A stretch of DNA of 64,000 bases from a bacterium. Its GTDB lineage: Bacteria; Patescibacteriota; Minisyncoccia; Minisyncoccales; CG1-02-41-26. Shown here piece after piece: positions 1-49,115 of this stretch. The stretch is from the NCBI GenBank assembly GCA_030648255.1, contig JAUSHZ010000007.1, positions 24,404 to 88,403 of the forward strand, in the 5' to 3' direction. The stretch's first letter is position 1; each line of letters begins with the position of its first letter. The notes under the pieces are model-generated. The model saw nothing but the letters and a program-made list of their open reading frames with translations, had not been told where the DNA came from and did no database searches. The position numbers were made by a program, and so were the translations under genes.

Positions 1-617
1 TCCTCTGGTGTAATAACGCCATTTGTTTCAACCTCTAAAATCACTTTGTCAAAGTCAGTCCTTTTCCCAACCCGCATATTTTCAACTGTAGAGTTTACCT
101 TTCTCACTGGGGTAAAAATTGCATCCATTGGAAAAACTCCAACTTCAGACTTTCCACCTTCTCTTTTTTCTAAGGGTTGATAGCCAATGCCTTTTTCAAC
201 AACTGCGTCAATCTCTAATTCAGAAGTTGACTTTGTTAATGTGGCAATATGAGCCTCTGGATTTGCTAACTTTAATTGAGCAGTGAGCTTAAAGTCTTTT
301 GCCTTTACGTCTTTTTCACCTTTAATTTTTAAAGTTATTGTTTGAGGTTCGTCGCTGTAATTCTTAAAATTCAATTTTTTAAGGTTTAAAATAATCATTA
401 TCACATCTTCCATAACACCGCTTATTGCTGAAAACTCGTGAGGAGCTCCTTTTATTTTAACTTGAGTAATAGCTGCCCCCTCCAAAGAAGAAAGCAAAAC
501 TCTTCTCATAGCGTTTCCAATAGTAACTCCATAGCCGGGATAAAGGCCTTCTATTTCAAAAAAAGCGGTATTTCCTTCCTGAGTGCTTATTTTTGGTTTT
601 GATGGTAATGGAATCAT
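1..617 (-). CDS. rpoA: DNA-directed RNA polymerase alpha subunit, N-terminal part; 3' end cut by window edge
   Basis: rc translation starts MIPLPSKPKISTQEGNTAFFEIEGLYPGYGVTIGNAMRRVLLSSLEG; follows rpsD as in alpha operon. Confidence 0.9.
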   Translation of the reverse strand, partial: MIPLPSKPKISTQEGNTAFFEIEGLYPGYGVTIGNAMRRVLLSSLEGAAITQVKIKGAPHEFSAISGVMEDVIMIILNLKKLNFKNYSDEPQTITLKIKGEKDVKAKDFKLTAQLKLANPEAHIATLTKSTSELEIDAVVEKGIGYQPLEKREGGKSEVGVFPMDAIFTPVRKVNSTVENMRVGKRTDFDKVILEVETNGVITPE

Positions 618-641
618 ATAGTTTTTAATTTAATTATTTTT

Positions 642-1277
642 TTAGCGAGAATAGAACTCAAAAATAGATGAAATATCAATATTATTAACGTCTTCTGCTG
701 TGGGCTCGGCCATAATTTTACCTTCCATTTTTTCTTTATCTAAATCCAGCCATTTTGGCTGTTGATAATTTTTTAAGGCAGAAGAAAGATTCTTAAAAAT
801 CACTTTTCCTTTTTTATTCTCCTTAAAAGAAATGGCTAATCCTTTTTTAGTAGCAAAAGATGATATATTAACTGGTTTTCCATTTACTAAAAAATAACCA
901 TGAGAAACCATCTGCTTTGCCTCTCTCCTTGATTTAGCAAAACCTAATCTAAAAACAACATTGTCTAGCCGTCTTTCCAATTCTTTTAACAAAAACAGGG
1001 TAGCATCGCCTCCTTGCCCTCTTTTTTTCAAAACAAATTTAACATGGTTTCTAAACTGGCGCTCTCCCAAACCATAGTAGTTTCTTAATTTTTGTTTTTC
1101 TTTTAATTGTTTCGCAAACTCCGAAAAAGAGCCGCTTCTTCTTTTCTTTTTAGGGCCTGGGGCATATGGCCTTCTAATAAAAGGGCAGGTGGGGGAAAAG
1201 CATTTCTCCCCCTTTAAAAAAGTTTTTTGGCCTAATCGCCTGCAAACCTTGCAATTTGTGATAGTTTTTTTCTGCAT
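642..1277 (-). CDS. rpsD: 30S ribosomal protein S4 (zinc-ribbon form)
   Basis: ORF track 211 aa; CxxC..CxxC N-term, S4 motifs; operon position. Confidence 0.93.
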   Translation of the reverse strand: MQKKTITNCKVCRRLGQKTFLKGEKCFSPTCPFIRRPYAPGPKKKRRSGSFSEFAKQLKEKQKLRNYYGLGERQFRNHVKFVLKKRGQGGDATLFLLKELERRLDNVVFRLGFAKSRREAKQMVSHGYFLVNGKPVNISSFATKKGLAISFKENKKGKVIFKNLSSALKNYQQPKWLDLDKEKMEGKIMAEPTAEDVNNIDISSIFEFYSR

Positions 1278-2136: not shown

Positions 2137-2526
2137 TTACTTTGGCCCTGGGGCTGTTTTTCTTCCAGAACTTACAGTTCTCTTAACATTGCCCCTTACA
2201 GTTCTTGAATTCTTTTTTGTTTTTTGCCCTCTAACAGTCAAGCCCTTTATGTGCCTGGTTCCTCGCCAACACTTAATCTCTTTTAATCTTTTAATATGGG
2301 CCACGTGCTCTCTTCTTAAGTCTCCTTCAATCTTATAACTTGCATCAATAACCTCTTTTATCTTCATTGCTTCTTGCTCGGTTAAATCTTTAGCTTTTTT
2401 CTGTGGCTCTATGTTGCATTGCTTTAAAATTCTTAAAGCCAATGGCCTGCCAATGCCAAAAACATAAGTCAAAGAAATGGCTATTTGTTTATTATCTGGA
2501 ATTGTGATGCTTGCTATTCGTGGCAT
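2137..2526 (-). CDS. rpsM: 30S ribosomal protein S13
   Basis: MPRIASITIPDNKQ... S13; start at ATG after ...tctaac of repeat. Confidence 0.92.
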   Translation of the reverse strand: MPRIASITIPDNKQIAISLTYVFGIGRPLALRILKQCNIEPQKKAKDLTEQEAMKIKEVIDASYKIEGDLRREHVAHIKRLKEIKCWRGTRHIKGLTVRGQKTKKNSRTVRGNVKRTVSSGRKTAPGPK

Positions 2527-2751
2527 GTTAGAAGCTGTGTGAATTTTCAAATTTAATGATTTGAAAATTCATTACAGATTCTTACACCCCGTTAAGTGCG
2601 AGCGATTAGCAAGCTACTTAACTGGGGTTTGTTTATATTTCTATCCACACCCCAGTGAAGTAGAATTTAATTTCATTAAATTCACTTCACGGGGTAAATT
2701 CCGCCAACCGCTCAAACTTCGGCTCATCGCCTCGTTTTCGCGGGGCGTCAT
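2527..2751 (-). repeat. repeat copy rpmJ|rpsM (Y, A, R2)
   Basis: near-identical to 2869-3085. Confidence 0.9.
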
Positions 2752-2868
2752 TTATGCGCCTTGGCGCTGTTTGTGTTTTGGAGTTTTGCAAATAACATAA
2801 ACCCTCCCCTTTCTTCTGGCGATTTTACAATCCTTACATAATTTTTTTACTGATGGTTTAACCTTCAT
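2752..2868 (-). CDS. rpmJ: 50S ribosomal protein L36
   Basis: rc gives [38 protein letters not shown] (38 aa, CxxC..C..H); absent from ORF track (<60 aa). Confidence 0.9.
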
Positions 2869-3085
2869 GTTAGAAGCTGTGTGAATTTTTAAATTTAATG
2901 ATTTGAAAATTCATTACAGATTCTTACACCCCGTTAAGTGCGAGCGATTAGCAAGCTACTTAACTGGGGTTTGTTTGTATTTCTATCCACACCCCAGTGA
3001 AGTAGAATTTGAGTACAAATTCACTTCACGGGGTAAATTCCGCTTGCCAATCGCGCTTCGCCTGCTGGCTCGCACTCTTGGAGCG
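2869..3085 (-). repeat. repeat copy infA|rpmJ (Y, A, R1)
   Basis: as above; tail ..ggagcgtcattta abuts infA TGA. Confidence 0.9.
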
Positions 3086-3304
3086 TCATTTAAGTCTATA
3101 AACTATTCTGCCTCTTTTATCATCAATAGAGGCCATTTCAACCAACACCTTATCGCCCAACAAAATTTTTATGCGATTAATTCTAAGCTTCCCGGCCAAA
3201 TGCGCCAAAACCTCGTTTCCATTTTCCAATTGAATTTTAAATAAAAGACTAGGCAAAGCCTCTACAACTTGGCCTCTTTCTCTTATTGTATTAATTTGTT
3301 TCAT
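3086..3304 (-). CDS. infA: translation initiation factor IF-1
   Basis: 72 aa S1-like fold, MKQINTIRERGQVVEALP... Confidence 0.9.
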   Translation of the reverse strand: MKQINTIRERGQVVEALPSLLFKIQLENGNEVLAHLAGKLRINRIKILLGDKVLVEMASIDDKRGRIVYRLK

Positions 3305-8438: not shown

Positions 8439-8573
8439 TCAAAAGTCCTGATTTGCTCTTGATTCCATAATTTCTTTGGATCTATCAATCATGCGAATCC
8501 TCTCCAGATATTTTTTAAGTAAACGCTCACGACATGTCTCTCTTTTTTTTAAAGTTCTTCTTCTTTTGTTCAT
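8439..8573 (-). CDS. small highly basic protein (44 aa) with canonical SD
   Basis: AAGGAGG 7 nt upstream of ATG; MNKRRRTLKKRETCRERLLKKYLERIRMIDRSKEIMESRANQDF. Confidence 0.5.
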   Translation of the reverse strand: MNKRRRTLKKRETCRERLLKKYLERIRMIDRSKEIMESRANQDF

Positions 8574-8584
8574 TTGAAACCTCC

Positions 8585-9337
8585 TTATTTTGTAAGAATT
8601 TCTGCTCCTTTTCTTGTAATGGCTATGGTGTGCTCGAAATGGCAAGATAGGGAGCCGTCGGCTGTTTTATAGCCGAAGCCGTCATTAGCTTTTCTTAATT
8701 TCCAATTACCCATTGTTACCATTGGCTCAAGGCAAAAAACCATGCCAACCTCAATCTTTTCACCAGAGTTTCGCTTGCCATAGTTAGAAATTTTTGGGTC
8801 TTCATGCAATGCCTTGCCAATACCATGCCCGCACAAATCCCTAACCACATTAAACCCTTGGTATTCAACAAACCTTTGCACAATATTGCCAATATCTCCA
8901 AAAGTATTACCCGGCCTTGCTTTAGCAATGGCTAGTTTCAACGCTTTTTGCGTGGCTTTAATAAGCCGAATCTTTTCCGAATCCTCTGCTTCAGGCTTGC
9001 CCACCAGAGTAGAAAAAGCGTAATCAGAAAAATAATCTTGATATTTAATTCCTAAATCCAAACAAAGCAAATCGCCCTGCTTTAGAATATAACCATCGGG
9101 CACCCCATGCACCACCATATCATTAATAGAAATACAAGAAACACAAGGAAATCCTTCGTAATCTTTAAAGGCTGGTTCGGCCCTATATTCTAAAATAAGA
9201 TTTTCACACGCTCTGTCTAATTCTTTAGAAATAATGCCCGGAGCTATCATTGGCTTTATTTTTTCAATAATTTCAGCCAAAATTTTTCCAGCCTCTCGCA
9301 TTATTTTTATCTCATTTTCTGTTTTAATAATTATCAT
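8585..9337 (-). CDS. map: methionine aminopeptidase type I
   Basis: 250 aa, metal ligands D..D..H..E..E pattern. Confidence 0.9.
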   Translation of the reverse strand: MIIIKTENEIKIMREAGKILAEIIEKIKPMIAPGIISKELDRACENLILEYRAEPAFKDYEGFPCVSCISINDMVVHGVPDGYILKQGDLLCLDLGIKYQDYFSDYAFSTLVGKPEAEDSEKIRLIKATQKALKLAIAKARPGNTFGDIGNIVQRFVEYQGFNVVRDLCGHGIGKALHEDPKISNYGKRNSGEKIEVGMVFCLEPMVTMGNWKLRKANDGFGYKTADGSLSCHFEHTIAITRKGAEILTK

Positions 9338-10937: not shown

Positions 10938-12221
10938 CTACAAGTTTTCGTAGTCCCTCATTTCCATTTGGGCTTTTACTTGCCTCCAAATATCCAAAAC
11001 CACAGAAACCACAATCAATATGGCAGTTCCTCCAATTAAAAATTGAAAAGCCACCACCCCTGTTATCCCCTGAATAATTGAAGGCATTACCGCAATTAAG
11101 CTTAAAGATAAAGCGCCAATAAAAAGTGTGCGGTATAAAATCTTTTGCAAAAACTTGGCAGTTGATTCCCCCGGCCTAATGCCTGGCACAAAGCCACCCA
11201 TTTTTTGCAAGTTAGTGGCAATTGATTTTGGGTCAAAGGTAACGGCTGTGTAGAAAAAAGTAAACAGAAAAACCAAAACAAAAAATAGAGATCCGTTCAC
11301 CCAAACATTTGATAAAAATAATGAAACTGCCTTGGCGGTATTGGCAATAAAAGCGTTTCCTCCAACAGTTAAAAAATTAGCAATCATTGTAGGGAAAAGT
11401 AAAATGCTTAAAGCAAAAATAATAGGAATCACGCCAGCCGGGTTTAAATTAATTGGCAAATAAGTGGACACACCTCCATACATTTTATTGCCCCGCACTC
11501 TCTTGGCATAGTTAACTGGAATATTTCTTTTCGCTTCAGTTATTAAGACAACTCCAGCAATAATTACCAAAGCAATGATAAAAAATGCAATATATGGAAG
11601 CGCTTTTGAAGAGTCCCAACTTAAAGCAATTTGTCTGATTTGCGAAGGCGTATCAGCCACAATGCCAGCAAATATCAAAATTGAAACACCATTACCAACA
11701 CCCTTTTCAGTAATAAGTTCGCCAAGCCACATTAAAAATAACGCCCCCCCAGTAATTGTGATAATAGAGGTAATCATTTGCCACGCTGGCAAAACAGCAA
11801 TGGCTCCCTGTTTCTGAAATAGCATTAACATTGCGTAGGCCTGTAATACTGCTAAAGGCACTGTTAAAATTCTGCCATATTTATTAAACCTGGCTCTGCC
11901 TGCTTCTCCTTCTTCTTTATACATTTTTTCCAAAGCTGGAAAAATCATTGTTAAAAGCTGAATAATAATGGTTGAAGTGATATACGGGCCCAAGCCAAGC
12001 ATAACAATTGATAAATTAGAAAAAGCCCCCCCGACGAAAACATTTAAAAGCCCCAAAAGCTCGTTTTGGCTAAAAAATCTTTTTAAATTTTCTAAGTCAA
12101 TCCCTGGAATGGGAATGTTAGCGGCCAATCGTGAAACAGCCAACAAAGCCAAAACAAATAGAATTTTATTTCTTAATTGTTTGTCTTTAAATATTAATAA
12201 TAGTTTTTGAAACCACTCCAT
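10938..12221 (-). CDS. secY: preprotein translocase subunit SecY
   Basis: 427 aa, 10 TM, operon position. Confidence 0.93.
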   Translation of the reverse strand: MEWFQKLLLIFKDKQLRNKILFVLALLAVSRLAANIPIPGIDLENLKRFFSQNELLGLLNVFVGGAFSNLSIVMLGLGPYITSTIIIQLLTMIFPALEKMYKEEGEAGRARFNKYGRILTVPLAVLQAYAMLMLFQKQGAIAVLPAWQMITSIITITGGALFLMWLGELITEKGVGNGVSILIFAGIVADTPSQIRQIALSWDSSKALPYIAFFIIALVIIAGVVLITEAKRNIPVNYAKRVRGNKMYGGVSTYLPINLNPAGVIPIIFALSILLFPTMIANFLTVGGNAFIANTAKAVSLFLSNVWVNGSLFFVLVFLFTFFYTAVTFDPKSIATNLQKMGGFVPGIRPGESTAKFLQKILYRTLFIGALSLSLIAVMPSIIQGITGVVAFQFLIGGTAILIVVSVVLDIWRQVKAQMEMRDYENL

Positions 12222-12409
12222 GTTAGTAATTCTTAATTGAACGGCGAATTTATGAGCTGTGAAATTTAGAATTTCTTACACCCCGTGGAGTAGAAATTTG
12301 CTCTGCAAATTTCTATTTTAAATTTTTTACTAAAAATTTAAAATTACTCCACAGGGTAAATTCCGCTTGCCAATCGCGCTTCGATTACTCAGCACTCTTG
12401 GAGCGTCAT
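12222..12409 (-). repeat. repeat copy secY|rplO (X, B, R1)
   Basis: direct sequence match to family. Confidence 0.9.
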
Positions 12410-12841
12410 TTACTTTACTGTTCCTCCTGCTTTTTCTATTTTAACTTGAGCAGCTTTTGAAACCAAGCAATCCTCAATAGTAAGTGATTTAGTAAGTTCG
12501 CCATTTCCTAAAATTTTTACCAATGGAACTTTGCCTATAATTTTTCTAATTAATTTTTTATCAACTAAAACTTCCGGGGTAATTTTGTCTCCTTTTTCAA
12601 AATTCTTTTCTAAAACATTAAGATTTATAGAGGCTGTTTCTTCTCCTCTTAATTCCTGCCTGTATCCTCTTATTTTTGGATATCTTTTAATAATCTCTCT
12701 CATAAAGGGTTGCATTTTTCTCCCAGCCCTTGATTTTTGGCCTTTGCAACCCTTCCCACAGTAAGTTCCCTTCTTGCCTCCTCTGCCAATTCTTTTTCTA
12801 TCTTTTGTCTTATTATTTGGTTGTATTTCGTGAATTTGCAT
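12410..12841 (-). CDS. rplO: 50S ribosomal protein L15
   Basis: 143 aa, Gly/Arg-rich N-term. Confidence 0.9.
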   Translation of the reverse strand: MQIHEIQPNNKTKDRKRIGRGGKKGTYCGKGCKGQKSRAGRKMQPFMREIIKRYPKIRGYRQELRGEETASINLNVLEKNFEKGDKITPEVLVDKKLIRKIIGKVPLVKILGNGELTKSLTIEDCLVSKAAQVKIEKAGGTVK

Positions 12842-13040
12842 GTTAGTAATTCTTAATTGAACTGCGAACGATTAGTGAGCTGTGAAATTTAGAAGTACTT
12901 ACACCCTGTGGAGTAGAAATTTGCTCTGCAAATTTCTGTTTTAAATTTTTAGTAAAAAATTTAAAACTACTCCACGGGGTAAATTCCGCCTTCCACTCAA
13001 ACTTCGGCTAATCGCCTCGTTTTCGTGGGGCGTCATTTAA
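12842..13040 (-). repeat. repeat copy rplO|rpsE (X, B, R2); tail 13008-13040 is translated as rpsE C-terminus
   Basis: ..cggctaatcgcctcgttttcgtggggcgtcattta in frame with S5. Confidence 0.88.
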
Positions 13041-13526
13041 CTGTTGTAAGGCCGCTACTGTTGCCCGGGCGATATTTAATTTATTTCTTGATCTTGACAA
13101 TAACTTTGATGATATATTCCTAATTCCAGCTAAACTGCAAATAACTCTTACCTGGCCGCCAGCCACCAACCCCCTACCTTTTGCCTGAGGCCTTAACAAA
13201 ACCCTTGCTGGGCCATACTTTGCTGTAACCTCATGGGGAATTGTTTCCTCAAACATTGGAACAGAAATTAAATTCTTCTTGGCCAACCGAGTTGATTTTT
13301 CAACAGCAATTGCCACATCAGGCCCCTTGGCCACACCTAATCCAATTTTTCCCTTTTTATTGCCAACCACCACAACTGCCCTAAACCTCATTTGCTTTCC
13401 TCCCTTTGTTACTCTTGTAACTCTGGCTAAATCTAAAACCACCGAGTCGAACTCATCTTTCGGTTTTGCTGGAAATTGACCTCTTCTTTCTCTATTAAAT
13501 TTTCCTTGTTGTTGCTGTTGTTCCAT
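13008..13526 (-). CDS. rpsE: 30S ribosomal protein S5 (last ~11 aa encoded by repeat-derived sequence)
   Basis: S5 dsRBD plus C-domain; tail ..[10 protein letters not shown] read through the cgtcattta motif. Confidence 0.9.
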   Translation of the reverse strand: MEQQQQQGKFNRERRGQFPAKPKDEFDSVVLDLARVTRVTKGGKQMRFRAVVVVGNKKGKIGLGVAKGPDVAIAVEKSTRLAKKNLISVPMFEETIPHEVTAKYGPARVLLRPQAKGRGLVAGGQVRVICSLAGIRNISSKLLSRSRNKLNIARATVAALQQLNDAPRKRGD

Positions 13527-13720
13527 GTTAGTAATTCTTAATTGAACGGCGAACGATTAGTGAGCTGTGAAGTTTAGAAGTACTTACACCCTGTGGAGTA
13601 GAAATTTGCTCTGCAAATTTCTGTTTTAAATTTTTTACTAAAAATTTAAAACTACTCCACGGGGTAAATTCCGCTTGCCAATCGTGCCTCACCTGCTGGC
13701 TCGCACTCTTGGAGCGTCAT
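13527..13720 (-). repeat. repeat copy rpsE|rplR (X, B, R1)
   Basis: sequence match. Confidence 0.9.
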
Positions 13721-14065
13721 TTAAAATTGTAGCCCACCTTCTCTCGCTCCTTCAGCCAACGCTTTTATTCTACCATGATATTTAAAGCCTCCTCTATCAA
13801 AAACAACTTTTTTAATCTTTTTTTCTATTGCTAATTTAGCAATTTCCTTACCAACATTAAAAGCCTTTTCTAATTTTTTCAGTTTTTTCTCTTTTGAATC
13901 GTTTGCTGAAATAATAGTTTTGCCTTTTGTGTCGTCAATTATTTGAGCATAGATATGCTGGTTTGATTTAAATACGCAAAGCCGAGGCGCGGTTGGTGTG
14001 CCAATGACTTTTGCCCTGATTCGGCTGTGTCTTCTTGTTCTTTTTTGTTGTTTTGTCTGTTGCAT
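13721..14065 (-). CDS. rplR: 50S ribosomal protein L18
   Basis: 114 aa. Confidence 0.9.
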
Positions 14066-14258
14066 GTTAGTAGTCGTTAATGAATGAGTGGCGATTAGCC
14101 ACGAGTGAATTTACGAATTCTTACACCCTGTGGAGTAGAAATTTGCTCTGCAAATTTCTGTTTCAAATTTTTAGCAAAAAATTTGAAACTACACCACGGG
14201 GTAAGTCCTCCGTAAGCTCTGGCTTCGGCTAATCGCCTTGCCATCGCTAACGGATTAC
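14066..14258 (-). repeat. repeat copy rplR|rplF (W, B, R3)
   Basis: sequence match; gtggc-gatta-gccac. Confidence 0.9.
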
Positions 14259-14819
14259 TTATTTTCCAGCTTTCTTGCCCTCTTTCTTGCGGACAATTTC
14301 ACCAAAATATCTAACGCCCTTGCCTTTGTATGGCTCTGGCTTTCTTAAAGCTCTTATTTTTGCTGCAAACTGGCCAACCTGTTGCTTGTCAAAACCAAAA
14401 ATATTTATAAATTGTTTTTCTATTTTTATAGACAAACCCCCTGGAATCTCCATAAAAATAGGGTGAGAAAAACCCAAGTCCAATCTTATTTTCGATTCTC
14501 CCTCCATAGCAGCCTTGTATCCAACTCCCCTAAGCTCTAATTTCTTTTCAAATCCAACTGAGACGCCATGAACATGGTTCAATAATAAAGCAGTGGTTAA
14601 CCCCCAGAGAGCAGGAATTTCTTTGCTCTCTTTTTCCTGTCTGCCGACAGGCAGGGCTGGCTTTACAACTAAAATATTACCTTGTTGTTCCACAACAATA
14701 CCAACAGGAATTTCCTGTTTTATCTCTCCCTTAGGCCCTTTAAATAAAACATTATCTTTTTCAAGAATAACTGTTACGCCTTGGGGTATTTCTATTGGTT
14801 TTTTTCCTATTCTTGACAT
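14259..14819 (-). CDS. rplF: 50S ribosomal protein L6
   Basis: MSRIGKKPIEIPQGV...; track prefix MKTHTISNM is artefact. Confidence 0.92.
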   Translation of the reverse strand: MSRIGKKPIEIPQGVTVILEKDNVLFKGPKGEIKQEIPVGIVVEQQGNILVVKPALPVGRQEKESKEIPALWGLTTALLLNHVHGVSVGFEKKLELRGVGYKAAMEGESKIRLDLGFSHPIFMEIPGGLSIKIEKQFINIFGFDKQQVGQFAAKIRALRKPEPYKGKGVRYFGEIVRKKEGKKAGK

Positions 14820-15021
14820 GTTAGAAATTGTGTGAGTTTTCAAGCTATAATCTTTTTTATGGCTTGAAAACTCATTACAAGTTCTTACACCCTGTGGAGT
14901 AGAAATTTGCTCCGCAAATTTCTGTTTTAAATTTTTTACTAAAAATTTAAAACTACTCCACGGGGTAAGGTATCCGTAAGCTCGGGCTTCGCCTGCTGGC
15001 TCGCCCTCGCTAACGGCTACC
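14820..15021 (-). repeat. repeat copy rplF|rpsH (Z, B, R3)
   Basis: 13-bp hairpin tgagttttcaagc/gcttgaaaactca. Confidence 0.9.
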
Positions 15022-15411
15022 TTACCACACTTCCACCATTAATTCACCTCCGACTTTATCTTTTCTGGCTTGCTTATCTGTTAATAAACCATTGGTGGTT
15101 GAAACAATAGATAAGCCATAGCCACTTCTTACCTTTGAAATCTCGTCTGCTTTTTTATAAATTCTTTGCCCTGGCTTTGAAATCCTTTTAAACCCAGAGA
15201 CGGCTGGCATCTTTTCATTATATTTTAACTGTATTTTTATAATTTGAAACGGCTTTTTCCCTTTTTTCTTGCAATCCAAAATAAGCCCCTCTGCTTTTAA
15301 AATTTCAGCAATTGAGTATCTTAGTTTTGAAAAAGGAACATCGGTTGTTTTATGGAAAACAACTTGAGCGTTCCTTATTCTATTAAACATGTCTGTTATT
15401 GGATCGGTCAT
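15022..15411 (-). CDS. rpsH: 30S ribosomal protein S8
   Basis: MTDPITDMFNRIRNA... Confidence 0.92.
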   Translation of the reverse strand: MTDPITDMFNRIRNAQVVFHKTTDVPFSKLRYSIAEILKAEGLILDCKKKGKKPFQIIKIQLKYNEKMPAVSGFKRISKPGQRIYKKADEISKVRSGYGLSIVSTTNGLLTDKQARKDKVGGELMVEVW

Positions 15412-15612
15412 ATTAGAAGTTGTGTGAGTTTTCAAGCTATAATTTTTTTTATGGCTTGAAAACTCATTACAAATTCTTATACCCCGTGGAGTAGAAATTT
15501 GCTCTGCAAATTTCTGTTTTAAATTTTTTACTAAAAATTTAAAACTACTCCACAGGGTAAGTCCTCCGTAAGCTCTGGCTCGGCTGTTGCCTCGCCATAG
15601 CTAACGGATTAC
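15412..15612 (-). repeat. repeat copy rpsH|rpsN (Z, B, R3)
   Basis: sequence match. Confidence 0.9.
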
Positions 15613-15798
15613 TTACCAAGACGACTTCTTAATCCCGGGTATTTCTCCTTTACTTGCCATTTCCCTAAAACAAATTCTGCACAAACCAAAGTCCCTTATA
15701 AATCCCCTGTACCTTCCGCACTTAAAACATCGCCTCACTATTCTTGAAGAAAACTTTGGTTTTCGGTTTGATTGATTAATTAATGATTTTTTTGCCAT
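15613..15798 (-). CDS. rpsN: 30S ribosomal protein S14 type Z (zinc)
   Basis: 61 aa, CxxC..CxxC. Confidence 0.9.
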
Positions 15799-16020
15799 GT
15801 TAGTGATTCTTAATTGAACGGCGAGCGATTAGCGAGCTGTGAAATTTAGAATGACTTACACCCCGTTAAGTGCGAGCGATTAGCGAGCTACTTAACTGGG
15901 GTTTCGTTGTATTCTTACCCCACCCCAGTGAAGTAGAATTTGAGTACAAATTCACTTCACGGGGTAAGGCTCTGCTACCGCTCAACCTTCGCCTTCGGCT
16001 CGGCTTCACGGGCAGAAGCC
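15799..16020 (-). repeat. repeat copy rpsN|rplE (X, A, R2-like); tail 15975-16020 translated as rplE C-terminus
   Basis: taccgctcaaccttcgccttcggctcggcttcacgg ~ R2 consensus. Confidence 0.85.
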
Positions 16021-16655: not shown

Positions 16656-16961
16656 TTAAATATCAGCTTTGCATTTCTTGCAAATTCTAACTTTATTTTC
16701 TCCTTCTACCTTATAGCCAATTCTTGTGGGTTTATTGCACTTAGGACATAAAGCCTGCGCTTTGGAGGCATTCATTGGAAAAGAAATTTCCACAATTTGC
16801 CCTTTTTCTCCTTGTTTTTTTGGCTTTTTATGCGTCTTTTTTATATTAACTCCTTCAACCAAAATCATTTCCTTAGATGGAAAGCTTTTTAAAACCTTGG
16901 CTTTCTTGCCTTTATCCTTGCCAGCGATTATTAAAACATTGTCTCCTTTTTTGATTCGCAT
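16656..16961 (-). CDS. rplX: 50S ribosomal protein L24 with C-terminal zinc ribbon
   Basis: MRIKKGDNVLIIAGKDKGKK..; CPKC..CKKC. Confidence 0.9.
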   Translation of the reverse strand: MRIKKGDNVLIIAGKDKGKKAKVLKSFPSKEMILVEGVNIKKTHKKPKKQGEKGQIVEISFPMNASKAQALCPKCNKPTRIGYKVEGENKVRICKKCKADI

Positions 16962-17177
16962 GTTAGAAATTGTGTGAGTTTTCAAGCTATAATCTTTTTT
17001 ATGGCTTGAAAACTCATTACAAGTTCTTACACCCTGTTAAGTGCGAGCGATGAGCGAGCTACTTAACTGGGGTTTGTTTATATTATTCTCATACCCCAGT
17101 GAAGTAGAATTTGATTACAAATTCACTTCACGGGGTTAAGCGATTGTAATGCTCGGCTATCGCCTCGCAGACAATCG
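16962..17177 (-). repeat. repeat copy rplN|rplX (Z, A, R4)
   Basis: sequence match; IR agcgattgt/acaatcgct at rplN TAG. Confidence 0.9.
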
Positions 17178-17967: not shown

Positions 17968-18375
17968 CTATTTTTTTACAAATTTAACTTTAATTGGCAA
18001 TTTATCTGAGGCCTTGCCAAACGCCTCAACAGCAATCTTTTCATCCACTCCATCAATTTCAAATATCACTCTACCAGGTTTTATCGGAAAAACATAATGG
18101 TCAACAGCCCCCTTGCCTCCACCCATTCCAACTTCTCCGCCTTTTTGCGTAATTGGTTTTTGGGGGAATATCCTAATCCATAGCTTACCCTTTCTTTTCA
18201 TTGCTTTTGTAATAGCTTTTCTAGCTGATTCCATTTGGTTGGCTGTAATCCATTTTGTTCCCATTGATTTCAATCCAAAAGAACCATAGGAAACTTCTGT
18301 TCCTCTTGTATCATTTCCTTTGCTTGTGCCCTTATGCCATTTCCTATGTTTCATTTTTCTTGGTTGTGTCAACAT
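17968..18375 (-). CDS. rplP: 50S ribosomal protein L16
   Basis: MLTQPRKMKHRKWHKG... Confidence 0.92.
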   Translation of the reverse strand: MLTQPRKMKHRKWHKGTSKGNDTRGTEVSYGSFGLKSMGTKWITANQMESARKAITKAMKRKGKLWIRIFPQKPITQKGGEVGMGGGKGAVDHYVFPIKPGRVIFEIDGVDEKIAVEAFGKASDKLPIKVKFVKK

Positions 18376-18566
18376 GTTAGAAGCTGTGTGAATTTTCAAA
18401 TTTAATGATTTGAAAATTCATTACAGATTCTTACACCCCGTGGAGTAGAAATTTGCTCTGCAAATTTCTGTTTTAAATTTTTAGTAAAAAATTTAAAACT
18501 ACTCCACAGGGTAAATTCCGCTTGCCAATCACGCTCGCCTGCTGGCTCGCGCTCTTGGAGCGTCAT
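18376..18566 (-). repeat. repeat copy rpsC|rplP (Y, B, R1)
   Basis: sequence match. Confidence 0.9.
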
Positions 18567-19226
18567 TTAATTAAAGCGTTCTCCCTTATACATCCAAACC
18601 TTAACGCCAATAACCCCATAAGTGCAGTGTGCCTCGCATGAGCCATATTCAACTATGGCTCTTATTGTTTGAAGCGGAAGTCGCCCATCTTTTAACCATT
18701 CTCTTCTGGAAATTTCAACTCCATTTAACCTACCTGATACCTCAACCTTCACGCCTTTTATTTCTTTTTGCTCAGCTGTTTTGCTTATTGCCATTTTCAA
18801 AACTCTTCTAAACGGCACTTGCTTTTCGATTTGGCCAGCCATCCATTGAGCTGTTAAGCTGGCTGAAAGCCATGGGTTTCTTATTTCAATAATTTCTATT
18901 TTAATGCTGTTTTTATCTGTTTTTATCTTCCCCTTTACTTTTGATATTGCTTTTTCAATTCCCATTTTCAAATCCTCAACTCCTTTGCCCCCCCTGCCGA
19001 TAATCAAAGCGGGTCTGGAAGTTTTAATAATAATTTTTAAGGCAGCGGATGTTCTCTCTATCTCTACTTCCTGAATAATACCCGCGGGTAGCTTCTTAGT
19101 GATAAACTGCCTAATTATAAAATCCTCCTCTAAGTAAACAGGAAAATTGTTCTTATAAAAGCCTCTTGAAAGCCAGTCTTTCATTTCTCTTATCTTAAAA
19201 GATTTTGGGTTGACTTTATGGCTCAT
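18567..19226 (-). CDS. rpsC: 30S ribosomal protein S3
   Basis: KH domain, 219 aa. Confidence 0.93.
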   Translation of the reverse strand: MSHKVNPKSFKIREMKDWLSRGFYKNNFPVYLEEDFIIRQFITKKLPAGIIQEVEIERTSAALKIIIKTSRPALIIGRGGKGVEDLKMGIEKAISKVKGKIKTDKNSIKIEIIEIRNPWLSASLTAQWMAGQIEKQVPFRRVLKMAISKTAEQKEIKGVKVEVSGRLNGVEISRREWLKDGRLPLQTIRAIVEYGSCEAHCTYGVIGVKVWMYKGERFN

Positions 19227-19576
19227 ACTTTTGATTTATCTTGTTTAAAAATATCTAAATTTAAAGTAATATTAGAAGTTTTCTTTTCTATTCTACAAGC
19301 CCTGCCCCTAGCTCTGGCCCTCCATCTTTTAAGGGTTCTGCCCTCATCAACTTTAATTAAGGAAATAAACAAATCTTTTTCTTCTAATTTAAAATTGTTT
19401 TTAGCGTTGGCCACTGCTGAATCCAAAAGCTTTTTTAAAGGCAAGGCTCCTTTTTTAATGCAAAATCCTAAAGATGCTTGGGCTTTCCCAGCAGATTTTC
19501 CTCTAACCATATCAGCCACCAAGCGAACTTTTCTGGGTGATATTCTTAAATTGTTTAATTTTGCTATAACTTGCAT
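19223..19576 (-). CDS. rplV: 50S ribosomal protein L22
   Basis: MQVIAKLNNLRISPRKVRLVADMVRGK; 18-aa track prefix is repeat read-through. Confidence 0.9.
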   Translation of the reverse strand: MQVIAKLNNLRISPRKVRLVADMVRGKSAGKAQASLGFCIKKGALPLKKLLDSAVANAKNNFKLEEKDLFISLIKVDEGRTLKRWRARARGRACRIEKKTSNITLNLDIFKQDKSKV

Positions 19577-19776
19577 GTTAGAAATTGTGTGAGTTTTCAA
19601 GCTATATTTCCTTATGGCTTGAAAACTCATTACAAGTTCTTACACCCCGTGGAGTAGAAATTTGCTCCGCAAATTTCTGTTTTAAATTTTTAGTAAAAAA
19701 TTTAAAACTACTCCACAGGGTAAATTCCGCTTGCCAATCGCGCTTCGCCTGCTGGCTCGCGCTCTTGGAGCGTCAT
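19577..19776 (-). repeat. repeat copy rpsS|rplV (Z, B, R1)
   Basis: sequence match. Confidence 0.9.
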
Positions 19777-20103
19777 TTATTTCTTTACTGGTACTGGTGC
19801 TTTAGGTTGGGTTTGAGTTTGCACTTTTGATTCTTGCTCTCTTTGCATTTTTCCGCCATGCCTGCCAAACTTCGTGGTTGGGGAAAATTCTCCTAATTTA
19901 TGGCCAACCATATCTTCTGAAACATAAACGGGAATATGCTCTTTTCCATTATGGACTCCAAAAGTAAAGCCAACCATTTCTGGTGTAACAGAACACTCGC
20001 GAGACCATGTCTTAATAACTTTTTTCTCGCCAGCTTTCTGGTTGATGACTTTTTTTATTAATCTTTCGTCCACAAAAGGACCCTTTTTTAGTGATCGTGG
20101 CAT
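19777..20103 (-). CDS. rpsS: 30S ribosomal protein S19
   Basis: [15 protein letters not shown]. Confidence 0.93.
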
Positions 20104-22014: not shown

Positions 22015-22641
22015 CTATTTACTCTTTTTCTTATTTACTATTGAACTTGTAATCTCTACAAGCGTTCCTCGCCTGCCAGGGATGGCGCCTTTTACTGCAA
22101 TCAAATTATTTTCCAAATCAATTTTAACAATTTTTAAATTTCTCACCGAAATTCGCACAAATCCCATATGGCCTGGCATTCTCTTGCCCGGGAAAACTCT
22201 ACCCGGGTCAGTAGCACCAACCGAACCAATTGTTCTTACTTCATGCTTTGTGCCATGGGTTGTGTGATGCCCCCTAAAATTATATCTCTTAACACCTCCT
22301 TGAAACCCTTTGCCCTTGCTAATACCTGAAATTTTAACTTTATCTCCTTCTTGAAAAACAGAGGCATTAATCTCCTGCCCTAATTCATAATTCTTAATTC
22401 CTGATTCCTGAGGCCTGAACTCTTTTAAATATCTATACTCTTTGCCTTTCTCGGTTTTCTTAATTTTTCTAGCTTTTTTTTCAAAACCAATCTGAACCGA
22501 TTCATAGCCATCTTTGCTTTCCTTGGTCTTATTTTGTAAAACAACACAAGGCCCAGCTGTAATCAAAGTTACTGGGACTGCATCTCCCTTTTCATTAAAT
22601 ATTTGAGTCATCTCTAATTTTTTTCCAAGAATAAATGACAT
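22015..22641 (-). CDS. rplC: 50S ribosomal protein L3
   Basis: 208 aa. Confidence 0.92.
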   Translation of the reverse strand: MSFILGKKLEMTQIFNEKGDAVPVTLITAGPCVVLQNKTKESKDGYESVQIGFEKKARKIKKTEKGKEYRYLKEFRPQESGIKNYELGQEINASVFQEGDKVKISGISKGKGFQGGVKRYNFRGHHTTHGTKHEVRTIGSVGATDPGRVFPGKRMPGHMGFVRISVRNLKIVKIDLENNLIAVKGAIPGRRGTLVEITSSIVNKKKSK

Positions 22642-22941
22642 GTTAGAAGCTGTGTGAATTTTTAAATTTAATGATTTAAAAATTCATTACAGATTCTTAC
22701 ACCCTGTGAAGTAAAATTTGAGTACAAATTTTAATTTTAAATTTTTTACTAAAAATTTAAAATTACTTCACGGGGTTAATAATCCGTAAGCTCAAGCTTC
22801 GCCTGCTGGCTCGCTCTCGCTAACGAATTATTAAAAACACGAGGCATTAACTCCCCGCATTTTTGTTAAAAACTCAAGGGTTAAATTCTTCCCACTTTCA
22901 AGGGTTAAACTAATTAAGTTTTACCTTGAACTCTATATTAA
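22642..22941 (-). repeat. repeat copy rpsJ|rplC (Y', A/B hybrid core, R3) plus ~110-nt unique tail with tttaacccttga direct repeat
   Basis: ccctgtgaagtaaaatttgagtacaaatt..ttactaaaaatttaaaattacttcacgggg. Confidence 0.88.
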
Positions 22942-23280
22942 TTAAATCGTTTTAATTTCAATTTCCACGCCCGCTGGCAAGGTTAAATCACGAAGCGACT
23001 CAATAAATCTTTGGTTTGGATTTGTTACTTCTATCAATCGCTTGTGCACTCTCATTTCAAATTGCTCTCTAGCATCTTTGTGAACAAATGTTGACCTGTT
23101 TACTGTGTATTTTTTTATTTCTGTTGGCAAAGGCACAGGCCCAACCATTTCCACGCCCGACCTGCCCGAAATTTCTGTAATCTGATGGCACGAAGCGTCA
23201 ACCACCTTGCTATCATATGATTTTAGCTTAATTCTTAGCTGAACCGCCTGCTCCACTGGTTTTTCTTTTACTGTTGCCAT
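22942..23280 (-). CDS. rpsJ: 30S ribosomal protein S10
   Basis: start overlaps tuf stop (TAATG). Confidence 0.9.
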   Translation of the reverse strand: MATVKEKPVEQAVQLRIKLKSYDSKVVDASCHQITEISGRSGVEMVGPVPLPTEIKKYTVNRSTFVHKDAREQFEMRVHKRLIEVTNPNQRFIESLRDLTLPAGVEIEIKTI

Positions 23281-27088: not shown

Positions 27089-27550
27089 TTATCGGGCTAG
27101 ATAAGCAAAAGCTTTGTTGGCTTCGGCCATTTTATGGACATTGATTTTCTTTTTCACTGCCTCGCCCTCCCCCTTGCTTGCCTGCATAATTTCTTCAGCT
27201 AATCTGCTGGCCATATCTTTGCCTTTTTTCTTTTGGGCAGATGAAATAAGCCATCTCATGGCCAAGCTCAAAGCCCGTTTGTCTTTAACCTCTCTGGGCA
27301 CCTGATAAGTAGCTCCCCCAACACGCTGTGGCCTCACTTCAACTTTTGGAGCAGCTTCTTCTAAAGCTTTTTCAAAAATATCCATTGGCTCTTGTTTGGT
27401 TTGCTCTTTGACAATATCAAAAGCGCTATAAACAATTTTTTGGGCAATGCTTTTTTTGCCTTGAGTCATTACAGTGTTTATAAATTTTGCAACAATAACG
27501 CTGTCATAAGATGAATCAGGCAATATTTCTCTTGTTTTAAATTTAGCCAT
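27089..27550 (-). CDS. rpsG: 30S ribosomal protein S7
   Basis: 153 aa. Confidence 0.93.
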   Translation of the reverse strand: MAKFKTREILPDSSYDSVIVAKFINTVMTQGKKSIAQKIVYSAFDIVKEQTKQEPMDIFEKALEEAAPKVEVRPQRVGGATYQVPREVKDKRALSLAMRWLISSAQKKKGKDMASRLAEEIMQASKGEGEAVKKKINVHKMAEANKAFAYLAR

Positions 27551-27814
27551 GTTAGTAATCGTTAATGAATGAGTGGCGATTAGCCACGAGTGAATTTACG
27601 AGGACTTACACCCTGTGAAGTAAGATTTGAGGTCTCTTCCAAAAAGTGTATTCTCTTAAACTTTTAACTATTTTTCTCTCGCATCAATTGTTAATAATCG
27701 TACCCTCAAATCTTAATTTTAAATTTTTTACTAAAAATTTAAAATTACTTCACGGGGTAAATTCCGCCAACCGCTCAAACTTCGGCTCATCGCCTCGTTT
27801 TTGCTGGGCGTCAT
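27551..27814 (-). repeat. repeat copy rpsL|rpsG (W, B-type hairpin carrying ~80-nt insertion, R2)
   Basis: ccctgtgaagtaagatttgagg..[insert]..cctcaaatc..attacttcacgggg. Confidence 0.88.
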
Positions 27815-28231
27815 TTAACTTTTAACTCTTTTTGCTCCGTATTTAGATCTTCCATTTTTTCTGCCAGCCACCCCTGTGGTATCTAAATGTCCTCTAACAA
27901 TATGATATCTCACGCCGGGTAAATCTTTAACCCTTCCCCCTCTCACCAAAACCATTGAGTGCTCTTGTAGGTTGTGGCCTTCCCCGCCAATATAAGCAGA
28001 AACTTCTTTGCCATTTGATAGCTTAACCCTGGCTACTTTTCGTAAAGCCGAGTTTGGTTTTTTTGGAGTAACTGTGAAAACCTTAGTGCAAATTCCTCTC
28101 TTAAATGGAGACGCGTAGTCCTGTGGCCTGTTTTTTAAAACATTAAAACCATAAGTCAAAGCTCTCATCTTGATTGTTTTTTTCACTGGCTTTCTTGGCT
28201 TTTTAATTAATTGATGAATTGTTGGACACAT
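27815..28231 (-). CDS. rpsL: 30S ribosomal protein S12
   Basis: [11 protein letters not shown], 138 aa. Confidence 0.95.
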
Positions 28232-28366: not shown

Positions 28367-29317
28367 TTACTTACACTGCTGGGGTTTCACAGAGGTGCAG
28401 GTCAATGTTCCGTCAAGTGCTGTGCACCAAGTAATTCCTGCTTTGTCTGTATCTCCAATTCCCAAACAGCCAGTCAACGCTCCACTTCCTATCATAACTG
28501 TTGTCGAAGCAGAAGACGACACCTCCAAATTATACGCCGGCGTTGTCGTCCCAATCCCGATATTACCCTTCAATATTGTTTTCGTAATACTAGTATTTCC
28601 TAAAGTTACAGAATTGCTGCCATTGCCTATAGCACTCGCTCCTATTACTATTTCATTGGTATTCCCGTCTGCTCCAGCCATTGCGTTATAACCCTCATAA
28701 ACAGAGTTACTGGAAGTTGTATTGGCGGTAACACCATCGGCAATATAAACACCAGCCTTCGTGCCATTGGCGGTGTTTTGATAACCAGTATTATAGTAGA
28801 GAGCCTGCATACCGTTAGCGGTATTTTGATAACCAGTAGTGTTTGAGAAAAGAGCCTGCATACCGTTAGCGGTATTGTAATCGCCAGCAGTATTAGAATA
28901 AAGGGCATACACGCCATTAGCTGTATTTGTATATCCTGTAGTGTTAGAGTAGAGAGATCTATAACCAACAGCAGTATTATAACCCGCTTCATTTGTACTG
29001 GCTGTTGAACTTGCCATCCCCGCTTGATAGCCAACAAAAGTATTGTATAAGGATACATCATAATGACCTGCCTGGTAGCCAATATTAGTTTTAAAGCCAA
29101 TATTATTAAAATCAATTAGATCAGTAACCGCTATACCAAGAGAGGTTAGATATGTAGTAGTAGTTGTAGCTAATGTGCTAGTACTAAAAACATCTAGAGC
29201 TCCCCCAATAGAAACATTATTACCAATTGTGGTAACAGCTTGGGCGACTATAACTACGCAAAAAACCGTTGTTATGACGCTCACTACTACAGTAAAAATT
29301 TGCTTTTTATTATTCAT
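28367..29317 (-). CDS. membrane-anchored surface protein with GYxNTANG repeats (tail-fibre / YadA-head-like) and Cys-rich C-terminus
   Basis: N-terminal TM; ~8 tandem ~14-aa repeats NTANGxxALYSNTxGY; GNIGIGTTTPAYNLEV resembles tail-fibre neck motif. Confidence 0.55.
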   Translation of the reverse strand: MNNKKQIFTVVVSVITTVFCVVIVAQAVTTIGNNVSIGGALDVFSTSTLATTTTTYLTSLGIAVTDLIDFNNIGFKTNIGYQAGHYDVSLYNTFVGYQAGMASSTASTNEAGYNTAVGYRSLYSNTTGYTNTANGVYALYSNTAGDYNTANGMQALFSNTTGYQNTANGMQALYYNTGYQNTANGTKAGVYIADGVTANTTSSNSVYEGYNAMAGADGNTNEIVIGASAIGNGSNSVTLGNTSITKTILKGNIGIGTTTPAYNLEVSSSASTTVMIGSGALTGCLGIGDTDKAGITWCTALDGTLTCTSVKPQQCK

Positions 29318-29484: not shown

Positions 29485-29611
29485 AACCTGCTGGATGCCT
29501 TAGTGACCACCGCTCGTAATTGACGGTCTGAGCTAAGGATTACTTGGGCACAGACCCAAGTCGATCCCTGCAGAACGAAGCCCGCGGCTATTTAAGCCGT
29601 GGTTTTCGTTT
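29485..29611 (+). ncRNA. candidate small RNA (~125 nt), convergent with and overlapping 3' end of ORF 29588-30103
   Basis: stems ccttag/ctaagg, cttggg/cccaag; terminator cccgcggct-attta-agccgtgg + UUUUCGUUU. Confidence 0.45.
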
Positions 29612-30103
29612 ATCTGAAGAAAAAATGTCTAAAACATTATTGGCTTTTACTACAACATCTGGCTTTCTTTCACCTCGGAAAACAGCGATGGCCTCTTGAT
29701 GCGCTTTACTTTTCTTGCCTATTTGGCTAAAAGACACCTTTGGCGATTTAATTTTATTTTTATCAAACAAAGAAAGTAAGATGCTTCTAATTACGGCTTC
29801 GTGACCTGGGTATTCTCTATCAATAATTAAAGAATCAATTTTTTCGTTTTTAATTAGTAAAAATACTAAACCAGCAAAAATTCTAAATACAAAATTTTTG
29901 TGGGGCCTGTCTATCTCTCGCATAACAATTAAAACCTTTCGTTTTTCTTTAGCGCTAATCAAAAGAGTTCTCGCCTTACCATTAGCAAAACAAACTACCG
30001 TTAGTTTCCTAGTATCTTCAACTTTTCCTGATTGATCAATTTCTATAGGCATAAAGTTATCATAATTTATTCTAATTCTAACATAAGGATTTTTACAAAA
30101 CAA
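29588..30103 (-). CDS. hypothetical protein (171 aa)
   Basis: ORF only; no family recognised. Confidence 0.4.
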   Translation of the reverse strand: MFCKNPYVRIRINYDNFMPIEIDQSGKVEDTRKLTVVCFANGKARTLLISAKEKRKVLIVMREIDRPHKNFVFRIFAGLVFLLIKNEKIDSLIIDREYPGHEAVIRSILLSLFDKNKIKSPKVSFSQIGKKSKAHQEAIAVFRGERKPDVVVKANNVLDIFSSDKRKPRLK

Positions 30104-30340
30104 AACCGCCCTAATAAAATCAAAAGCGGAATTTTGTTTAGTATTTTATTTTTTTATTTCGCTGGGAAGGCTGGAATATTTGGTCTTATCTGGATTGACT
30201 GGGCGGTGATGCTGCCGTCATAGCTAGCGATTTTTCATCACCTTTCAAGTTGTGGAAATATCATACCATTTTTCACCCAAAATTCAAACCCTAAAATACA
30301 ACAACGTTCGGAGTTCCGAACGCTGTCTAATATGCAAAGC

Positions 30341-30436
30341 TCATTTAATATTATGATTTTTGCCAAAAAATTGGCTAAAAAACACAACACACAAAACAAG
30401 AATACTAGCAATTAAAGTACTATAATTAATGGTCAT
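30341..30436 (-). CDS. 31-aa hydrophobic peptide (type I toxin-like or membrane leader peptide)
   Basis: AAGGAGG 10 nt upstream; MTINYSTLIASILVLCVVFFSQFFGKNHNIK has one TM then polar tail; not in ORF track. Confidence 0.45.
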   Translation of the reverse strand: MTINYSTLIASILVLCVVFFSQFFGKNHNIK

Positions 30437-30518
30437 TATTTACGCCTCCTTTTAAGTTAAAGAGCCCTTACTTAAGACACAAAAGAAATTGCTATACTTT
30501 AGCAACTTTTTTTGTGGC

Positions 30519-31142
30519 TCAAACGATTTTTGTTCCAACCAAAAACTGAAAAATCTCCATCAAATAACTTCCAAAATACGGGAATACAAAATAAATAAAC
30601 ATAATAAGAAAAAATATTCCAAATTGGTTTAAAAAAGCTATGGCGTTTTCTGCTGATTTTGGTAAAAAAGCAAACAAAATATGCGAGCCGTCAAGCGGAG
30701 GTATCGGCACCAAATTAAAAAATGCCAATAGTAAATTTATCCAAACAACTTCCAAGAAAATCGCCCCTAAATTTTGGCTAAATAAAGAACTGCCCAATGG
30801 TAAAAAGCGCAAAACTAAAGTAAAAATCAAAGCCACAGAAATATTAGCCAAGGGACCTGCCATAGCCACCTTAGCTTCGCCATATTTTCTATCTCGCAAG
30901 GCATACGGATTTATTGGCACTGGTTTTGCCCAGCCAATCAACATACTGCTATGAGATATTACCAAAAGCAAAGGCACAATTATTGAGCCAAACAAATCAA
31001 TGTGTTTTATGGGGTTTAAGGTTATTCTCCCCATATCTCTGGCGGTTCTATCTCCCAAGCGTTCAGCCATGGCTCCATGGGCCACTTCGTGGATAATAAT
31101 AGAAAAAACCAAAACAATTACGCTAAAAATAATATCAATCAT
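30519..31142 (-). CDS. site-2 protease family (peptidase M50) zinc metalloprotease
   Basis: HEVAHG ... NLVPIPPLDGSH. Confidence 0.85.
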   Translation of the reverse strand: MIDIIFSVIVLVFSIIIHEVAHGAMAERLGDRTARDMGRITLNPIKHIDLFGSIIVPLLLVISHSSMLIGWAKPVPINPYALRDRKYGEAKVAMAGPLANISVALIFTLVLRFLPLGSSLFSQNLGAIFLEVVWINLLLAFFNLVPIPPLDGSHILFAFLPKSAENAIAFLNQFGIFFLIMFIYFVFPYFGSYLMEIFQFLVGTKIV

Positions 31143-48956: not shown

Positions 48957-49115
48957 ATTTTTTTATTATATTATAATTATATTAGAGCTGGCAATAATAG
49001 CTTTTAGGAGACCACGAGGGTACCCTCCGCGCATGTGGAGGTCTTAATACTTGTGGTAAATCCTAGGAGACGCCACTCTATAAAAATCATCTCTTTTGAG
49101 GTGTTTTTTATTATT

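Follow-up and report, generated by a model that had tools for sequence, protein, structure and literature searches.

The window, by which we mean the whole 64,000-nt stretch of DNA that was analysed, carries a gene for an M50 (site-2 protease family) protein and, 82 nt downstream of it on the same strand, a small open reading frame (ORF) encoding a 31-aa peptide. The small ORF is preceded by a Shine-Dalgarno (SD) sequence and followed by a terminator-like hairpin. An earlier sequence-only reading of the DNA had given no strand; all features of the locus (the SD, the ORF, the hairpins, the promoter and the gene relic) lie on the minus strand, and they are listed here from the M50 gene downstream.

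30519..31142, minus: M50/site-2 protease family gene, 207 aa, HEVAHG motif (Pfam PF02163, E 1.4e-17)
30478..30516, minus: hairpin of 16 pairs without a U-tract, directly after the M50 stop (-15.5 kcal/mol, z -3.4)
30445-30451, minus: SD AAGGAGG, 8 nt before the ATG of the small ORF, read directly
30341..30436, minus: small ORF, ATG to TGA with the stop included, 31 aa, MTINYSTLIASILVLCVVFFSQFFGKNHNIK, read directly
30290..30327, minus: terminator-like hairpin (30327..30300) with a U-rich tail, 12 pairs including G-U, six of them G-C (-18.4 kcal/mol, z -5.9 against shuffles), tail GTATTTTAGG
30252..30289, minus: conserved promoter TTGAAT, 16 nt, TGgTATGAT (promoter scan match 30287..30260), orphaned here
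30224..30248, minus: remnant of a sigma gene's 5′ end, AAAGGTGATGAAAAATCGCTAG, codons for ..KGDEKSL.. (matched collinearly by three relatives in blastn)

A 31-aa hydrophobic peptide behind AAGGAGG, as proposed by the sequence-only reading, is indeed encoded here, and its hydropathy amounts to 2.39 over 18 residues and 2.71 over 15; the spacer between the SD and the ATG is 8 nt, not 10. The peptide consists of a short N-terminal tail, a single hydrophobic helix and a tail containing Lys and His (..VVFFSQFFGKNHNIK), and Pro, Gly and Asn are absent from the predicted helix TLIASILVLCVVFFSQFF. In the predicted RNA structure, pairing of the SD is weak at most (MFE fold) or absent (centroid).

An exact-sequence look-up in public assemblies returned no gene on record with this 31-aa product, and the peptide matched no family in Pfam or NCBIfam, where nothing was found at E up to 1 in NCBIfam and the best Pfam entry, an apicomplexan microprotein family, stayed below threshold (13.3 bits vs. 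a cut-off of 27). The sole phmmer match among 1.84 billion representatives, P0121, was discarded as spurious, being an 834-aa protein of tandem repeats with 11 occurrences of a 15-residue match. When the peptide was compared by tblastn with 161 M50 loci, only one was hit, L001 from one other assembly, whose contig (contained in SRR13727527) is identical to the window over its whole 3183 nt; since this only other copy is identical, selection on the 31 codons has no comparator. Thus, the search for homologous peptides in related genomes, suggested by the sequence-only reading, yielded an identical copy and positional counterparts in the cassettes described below, but no true phmmer homologue among the 1.84 billion representatives.

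The M50 protein has thousands of homologues, which in Pacebacteria/Patescibacteria MAGs go by the name “site-2 protease family protein”, and they place the genome among uncultured Patescibacteria (Pacebacteria/Paceibacterota). It is a minimal 207-aa form without PDZ domains, PF02163 being its sole Pfam match. Between the M50 stop and the small ORF, the promoter scan detected nothing promoter-like, and the terminator-like hairpin starts 13 nt after the stop of the ORF; a hairpin at this place had been claimed before, and it proved to be real and stronger than described, with 12 pairs and the U-rich tail. The simplest reading is that the M50 gene, the small ORF and the terminator are carried by one transcript, the small ORF being the last cistron of a putative two-gene operon that would comprise the M50 gene, a hairpin, the SD, the 31-aa peptide and an intrinsic terminator.

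The hairpin directly after the M50 gene has counterparts at the same place in two relatives (L163, 4628-4669; L164, 4226-4267) and is absent in L162, L082 and L002. It is followed by AGGGCTCTTTAA, which matches the 3′ end of the M50 gene of L082, so that positions 30462-30518 (minus) hold the hairpin together with a copy of an M50-like 3′ end; the M50 C-terminus reads ..GTKIV* here and ..GVRAL* in L082. In sequence, this region looks like an insertion that swapped out the last M50 codons. We rejected the view of the hairpin as a dispersed mobile repeat, as there is no other copy in the window and elsewhere it occurs only at the same site in L163 and L164. Likewise rejected was the origin of the small ORF as a split-off C-terminal helix of the M50 protein, the homologues listed being nearly all about 200-215 aa long.

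DNA downstream of the small ORF

The surrounding 400 nt had been described as otherwise non-coding, a view that does not hold. Positions 30252-30308 are 87.7% identical over 57 nt to L162 (E 1e-14) and contain the conserved promoter, which in most relatives follows the terminator (TTGAAT, 16-17 nt, TGgTATGAT) and has the ATG of an ECF-type sigma-70 gene only a few bases behind it. Such a promoter with its sigma gene was found in L162, L165/167 and L172; in L163 another gene intervenes, and L173 has a truncated sigma copy. The next positions in the window, 30224-30248, matched the sigma genes of L082 (91% over 23 nt), L162 (89% over 19 nt) and L173 (90% over 20 nt) by blastn. Elsewhere, the window has a single sigma-like gene, a paralogue with 32% identity at about 47.6-48.2 kb. 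Judged from these alignments, the ECF sigma gene present in relatives is lost from this genome, and the promoter and a 5′ relic of about 25 nt remain.

The ggtgatg..catcacc stem noted earlier in this DNA is in fact located at 30205-30242, about 10 nt off, and its folding energy is unexceptional (z -0.74 and -0.77). As a functional hairpin it was rejected, because 43 and 38 of 200 shuffles folded as well and half of the stem is the coding sequence of the sigma relic.

The orphaned sigma promoter may now feed an unknown 153-aa gene (29588..30049). The sigma gene of L173/L174 is disrupted too: an N-terminal stub of 31 aa is left behind the promoter (2475-2570, plus strand), and separate r2 and r4 sigma pieces lie inverted upstream of the M50 gene (288-838, minus strand). 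This arrangement suggests recurrent rearrangement at the locus. Further downstream in the window (28367..29317, minus) there is a gene for a 316-aa protein rich in Asn, Thr and Gly, with an N-terminal TM or signal segment and tandem repeats of about 51 nt (YNTANG-like units), for which Pfam gave no match.

Two other elements of the window were recorded. A DUF3800-V RNA (RF02964) is present at 48983-49080 on the plus strand (a gathering-level Rfam match, 41.9 bits). In addition, a structured element of about 200-260 nt is repeated between the ribosomal-protein genes in at least 15 copies on the minus strand, at the following approximate positions.

1275-1492, 1904-2146, 2523-2765, 2865-3100, 12180-12422, 12803-13045, 13488-13735 and 14025-14262, minus: repeat copies
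14789-15020, 15409-15607, 15790-15994, 16959-17165, 18335-18580, 19544-19790, 22632-22945 and 27548-27830, minus: further repeat copies

The element extends from the stop codon of the previous gene (TAAATGACGC..) to ..TTCTAAC directly before the next ATG, and at its core ACCCCGUGGAGUA / UACUCCACGGGGU close a three-way junction, with compensatory changes at 15 of the 54 predicted pairs when nine copies were aligned. It has no match in Rfam even at E up to 1, and its conserved core was not found in the 174 related loci. The element may serve in processing or translation or be a mobile RNA, and it is probably more interesting than the 31-aa ORF.

Small-ORF cassettes behind the M50 gene in relatives

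To collect relatives, we used the M50 gene as an anchor, which gave 174 loci. All ten distinct related loci with enough downstream sequence, whose M50 proteins are 74-88% identical to that of the window, bear one to three short one-helix ORFs between the M50 stop and a hairpin (L162, L082/083, L002, L163, L165-168, L169/170, L171, L172, L173/174 and L175). Most of these cassette ORFs have an AGGAGG-type SD 5-9 nt upstream of the start, and in their products a single hydrophobic helix precedes a basic tail that often contains His, for instance ..FFARWVMRHKHK, ..LFFKHKQNNRRHKHV, ..SRITKKQKHA and ..IVELKGRRKKNA. Three types recur, “A” (29-35 aa), “B1” (with an ..EWL.. N-terminus) and “B2” (..ARWV.HHKH), and several of the ORFs share a conserved Pro (..NIPYG.., ..WPVLI..). 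The genes vary in number and diverge fast, yet they are under selection: in close pairs within each of the three types dN/dS is 0.12-0.47, the value for an A-type pair of 33-35 aa being 0.12. Therefore, the cassette ORFs of the relatives are genuine protein-coding genes.

Some of them have already been called by NCBI as hypothetical proteins (e.g., PHW31_01140, PHY72_00675; P0122-P0126). A profile of nine cassette peptides searched against 5.8 billion proteins gave five matches, essentially the members of the query itself, unnamed or “hypothetical”, and five of the relatives' peptides had no match in Pfam, the BofA family included. We considered whether M50 genes are generally accompanied by small TM ORFs, in distant homologues too, and rejected the idea: a first-pass scan flagged none behind M50 genes below 74% identity, a result that is indicative only, as the scan considered just the first start codon of each frame and overlooked some loci within the clade as well. 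The cassette would be specific to a narrow Pacebacteria (Patescibacteria) clade with M50 at least 74% identical, and the ORF of the window would be its local version.

The data obtained support the sequence-only proposal of a membrane micro-protein, since the slot holds one-helix genes in each of the ten distinct sister loci with enough downstream sequence, most with an AGGAGG-type SD, and close pairs of these genes are under purifying selection.

The window ORF as a candidate cassette gene

The window ORF occupies the same slot, bounded by the M50 stop and the hairpin terminator and in the orientation of the M50 gene; it has an AGGAGG-type SD within the range of 5-9 nt upstream in a genome that is otherwise SD-poor, and it encodes one TM helix followed by a basic/His tail. 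Its SD and start (AAGGAGGCGTAAATAATG) resemble AAGGAGGCGATAAAAATG of L175 and AAGGAGGTGATAAAATTG of L162, both of which precede B1 cassette ORFs. A hairpin is found at the equivalent position in relatives, and that of L162 shares the stem ends ACAGCGTT / AACGCTGT, so that the SD/start region, the position of the terminator and the downstream promoter are all collinear with the relatives. The window copy is the shortest cassette ORF, about 30 codons shorter than the B1 genes with a similar SD/start context, and short cassette ORFs of 33-37 aa are present in relatives.

Within the body of the ORF, blastn found no similarity to any relative. At the protein level, a B-type profile built from eight peptides gave the window peptide 6.5 bits, far from significant in absolute terms, which nevertheless ranked fourth among 503 window decoys. 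The best single partner was the 37-aa cassette ORF of L163 (MVINAGVIIVLIFILAIPWFQS..), with a score of 36, rank 2 among 276 TM-like decoys and a shuffle p of 0.0014; rank 3 in this comparison was another cassette ORF, and L163 also shares the post-M50 hairpin with the window. Homology to the A-type peptides of 33-35 aa was rejected, as the A-type profile gave no signal (rank about 29 of 503). The similarity of the window peptide to the cassette peptides is thus weak, with an empirical p of about 0.001-0.008. From these sequence comparisons we conclude that the window ORF probably derives from the cassette, keeping all its shared features and lacking the N-terminal segment of about 25 residues found in the B-type; its SD and start appear to be of the B1 type, and its body seems most like the L163 ORF. 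The Pacebacteria hypothetical proteins have in common with it the slot after M50, an AGGAGG-type SD, one helix, a K/H/R tail and a hairpin terminator; they differ in being 54-82 aa long and in having about 25 additional residues at the N-terminus, acidic or amphipathic in character, which are missing from the window peptide, and the similarity to them is marginal.

To estimate what could be expected by chance, we ran 300 first-order Markov simulations of the window. The composite signal, in which AAGGAGG is followed after 5-10 nt by an ATG that opens a frame of at least 30 codons with a TM-like stretch, was seen once in the window vs. 0.003 times expected. Its components are less telling when taken singly, as would suit an ORF that arose by chance in AT-rich intergenic sequence behind an accidental purine-rich run: AAGGAGG shows no overall enrichment (11 observed vs. 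9.8 expected), and hydrophobic small ORFs are common, 41 of the 503 small ORFs of the window (8%) passing the hydropathy threshold of the 31-aa peptide, so that hydrophobicity by itself is weak evidence for a gene. However, the rarity of the composite, the presence of cassette ORFs, most of them SD-led, in the same slot of ten independent relatives and the resemblance of the SD/start sequence to that of their cassette genes leave a chance origin scarcely credible, and the ORF is almost certainly not a chance ORF.

The use of the SD sequence points in the same direction as regards the cassette. In the window, just 5 of the 67 long minus-strand ORFs pass even a loose 4-mer test for an SD, and A/T-rich sequence stands before the start codons of rpsL, rpsG, fusA, tuf and the M50 gene as well as of almost every other long ORF; in the relatives' loci, an SD core precedes 3 of the 60 long ORFs. 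The relatives have 16 AGGAGG hexamers that are followed by a start codon within 4-10 nt; 12 of them precede cassette ORFs, and the other four lie before one pilin-like gene and three very short ORFs. In 64 kb of the window, AAGGAGG with an ATG is found before free-standing ORFs only twice, at 30341..30436 and before a 44-aa ORF at 8439..8573. Judging from these sequences, the genome is essentially SD-free, the strong AGGAGG plus start being placed mainly before tiny ORFs and one pilin-like gene.

Some further observations concern translation signals. The window contains 35 AGGAGG hexamers, every one on the minus strand. Several promoters are located a few bases from an ATG, which looks like leaderless expression (the window, L002, L082, L162-L173). 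The second SD-led mini-ORF, 8439..8573 (minus), has AAGGAGGT 6 nt before its ATG and encodes a 44-aa peptide that is very basic and not hydrophobic (MNKRRRTLKKRETCRERLLKKYLERIRMIDRSKEIMESRANQDF). It comes right after a 250-aa gene (8585..9337) and is followed by a GC hairpin with a T-run, so that it shares with the 31-aa ORF the layout of a last small cistron plus terminator.

The main rival to a functional cassette gene is a dead remnant: deletions would have taken most of the cassette and the sigma gene, and while the SD and the ATG survived, the 31 codons would be free of selection. Such decay is visible in the same stretch, where the sigma gene is reduced to a 25-nt relic, the 3′ end of the M50 gene is rearranged and the cassette is down to one short ORF. 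The shortening relative to the B1 genes by about 30 codons and an ORF body that blastn cannot align would also suit a remnant, and from base frequencies we estimate at about 10% the chance that a frame stays open for 30 codons after an ATG at this base composition, 8% of the small window ORFs being TM-like. Against this, all shared cassette features are kept, from the strong SD at 8 nt and the ATG to the one helix and the basic/His tail ending just before the terminator. The composite signal would arise by chance 0.003 times per window, the residual similarity to cassette ORFs beats about 99% of decoys, and cassette ORFs of 33-37 aa occur in relatives, where the short A-type pair is clearly constrained (dN/dS 0.12). 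We consider the remnant a possibility to be taken seriously, though on the unlikely side, and the reading that we prefer, with modest confidence, is that the ORF is probably a translated small membrane protein of a lineage-specific cassette linked to M50, as suggested by the sequence comparisons.

Possible roles of the peptide

The sequence-only reading had seen in the ORF a candidate type I toxin, i.e., a membrane-damaging peptide whose translation would be curbed by an antisense RNA from the opposite strand. The toxins of the Fst, Ldr and TisB-like kind are small and have one TM helix with a polar/charged tail, and the 31-aa peptide resembles them, as well as TxpA and Hok, in length and in this layout. 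A weak plus-strand promoter-like site at 30270-30297 (9 of 12 matches) points into the ORF; such sites, however, are at the shuffled expectation (6 found, 5.7 expected). No toxin family was matched in Pfam or NCBIfam (Fst, Ldr, Hok, TisB, Ibs, ShoB, TxpA/BsrG and others), and Rfam revealed nothing relevant to the locus, either at the gathering threshold over the whole window or at E up to 10 for 30050-30560, where no antitoxin or sRNA rose above noise. A type I toxin gene is transcribed independently, usually behind a structured 5′ UTR that conceals the SD; the ORF trails the M50 gene by 82 nt in the same orientation, no promoter specific to it having been detected by the scan, and its SD is little paired in the predicted folds. 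The space thought to leave room for an antisense RNA is accounted for by the same-strand orphaned promoter and gene relic, and in relatives the tandem arrays of up to three such genes would not accommodate antisense genes. A toxin paired with a protease is conceivable, since an S2P protease can detoxify the type I toxin HokB, one of the small membrane proteins degraded by RseP (PMC10470546). Taken together, the results speak against the type I proposal, which we regard as highly improbable.

Alternatively, the small ORFs might encode precursors or immunity-type peptides of an exported product, with M50 as the processing protease and the sigma and membrane-fusion/efflux genes of relatives completing the system. 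M50 proteases do process peptides in RiPP-like loci, and sigma and MFP (YknX/HlyD-like) genes lie downstream in relatives; variable gene number and fast divergence under continued selection would suit such peptides, and the window M50 weakly matches the daptide M50 model. This last score is far below the cut-off (29.8 bits vs. 300). Beside the window cassette we saw neither modifying enzymes nor an ABC transporter; the window and L169-L171 lack the sigma/MFP block, M50 and small ORFs nevertheless persisting in L169-L171; and the peptides, with 20 hydrophobic residues and a basic tail, look like membrane anchors rather than leader-core precursors. A role as exported or processed peptides is thus improbable.

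For the small membrane protein that we prefer, the topology can be predicted. Because its positive charge is all in the C-terminal tail (K26 and K31, plus H28), the peptide is expected from the positive-inside rule to insert with its N-terminus outside and the K/H tail in the cytoplasm (N-out/C-in). From the adjacency of the genes and by analogy, we infer only that it may be a partner of the co-encoded M50 protease, acting on or with it. The favoured role would be that of a membrane-embedded modulator or occupant of the protease cleft, in the manner of BofA for SpoIVFB. In Bacillus subtilis, BofA and SpoIVFA act as membrane-bound inhibitors of SpoIVFB; BofA is an example of a small membrane protein acting on an M50 intramembrane protease, its transmembrane segment filling the active-site cleft and blocking substrate access (PMC9042235), and the likeness is proposed here as an analogy. 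The His tails of the cassette peptides adjoin the helix and could reach the zinc site from the cytoplasmic side. BofA itself comprises 87 aa and two TM segments, whereas the window peptide has one, and neither this peptide nor those of five relatives matched the BofA family in Pfam; moreover, bofA is not adjacent to spoIVFB.

A role as an S2P substrate appears less likely. Such substrates are generally N-in/C-out, a type II orientation being required (PMC10470546). The predicted N-out/C-in orientation of the 31-aa peptide is opposite to this, and its helix, without Pro, Gly or Asn, lacks the helix-destabilising residues that are the other canonical feature of S2P substrates; for both reasons the role of a substrate is disfavoured. 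The single-pass small membrane proteins of E. coli (under about 50-100 aa), several of which are cleaved by RseP (PMC10470546), resemble the peptide in having one TM helix, in being very short and in having been missed by annotation. They show no sequence relationship to it, and the RseP substrates have an N-in/C-out orientation as opposed to the one predicted here. The tie to M50 consists here in gene adjacency, whereas the E. coli proteins are not encoded beside rseP.

A more far-reaching view would be that the minimal M50 and its mini-gene cassette belong together as a fast-evolving, dedicated membrane module of two parts, peculiar to this Patescibacteria clade, in which the peptides would be regulators (blocking the cleft, or reaching the zinc with their His tails) or dedicated substrates, coupled in relatives to an ECF sigma factor and bearing the only strong SDs for privileged translation. 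As a whole, we think this unlikely to be correct, and offer it tentatively.

On present evidence, the ORF probably encodes one more unannotated small membrane protein, of a kind, the bacterial small membrane proteins, that is already known. Genome annotation systematically overlooks such proteins, and in the Candidate Phyla Radiation they are almost entirely uncharacterised. If the peptide works with M50, the locus would offer a compact natural system for the control of minimal intramembrane metalloproteases. Moreover, the selective use of a strong SD for mini-genes in a lineage that otherwise ignores this signal would inform our view of translation initiation in reduced genomes.
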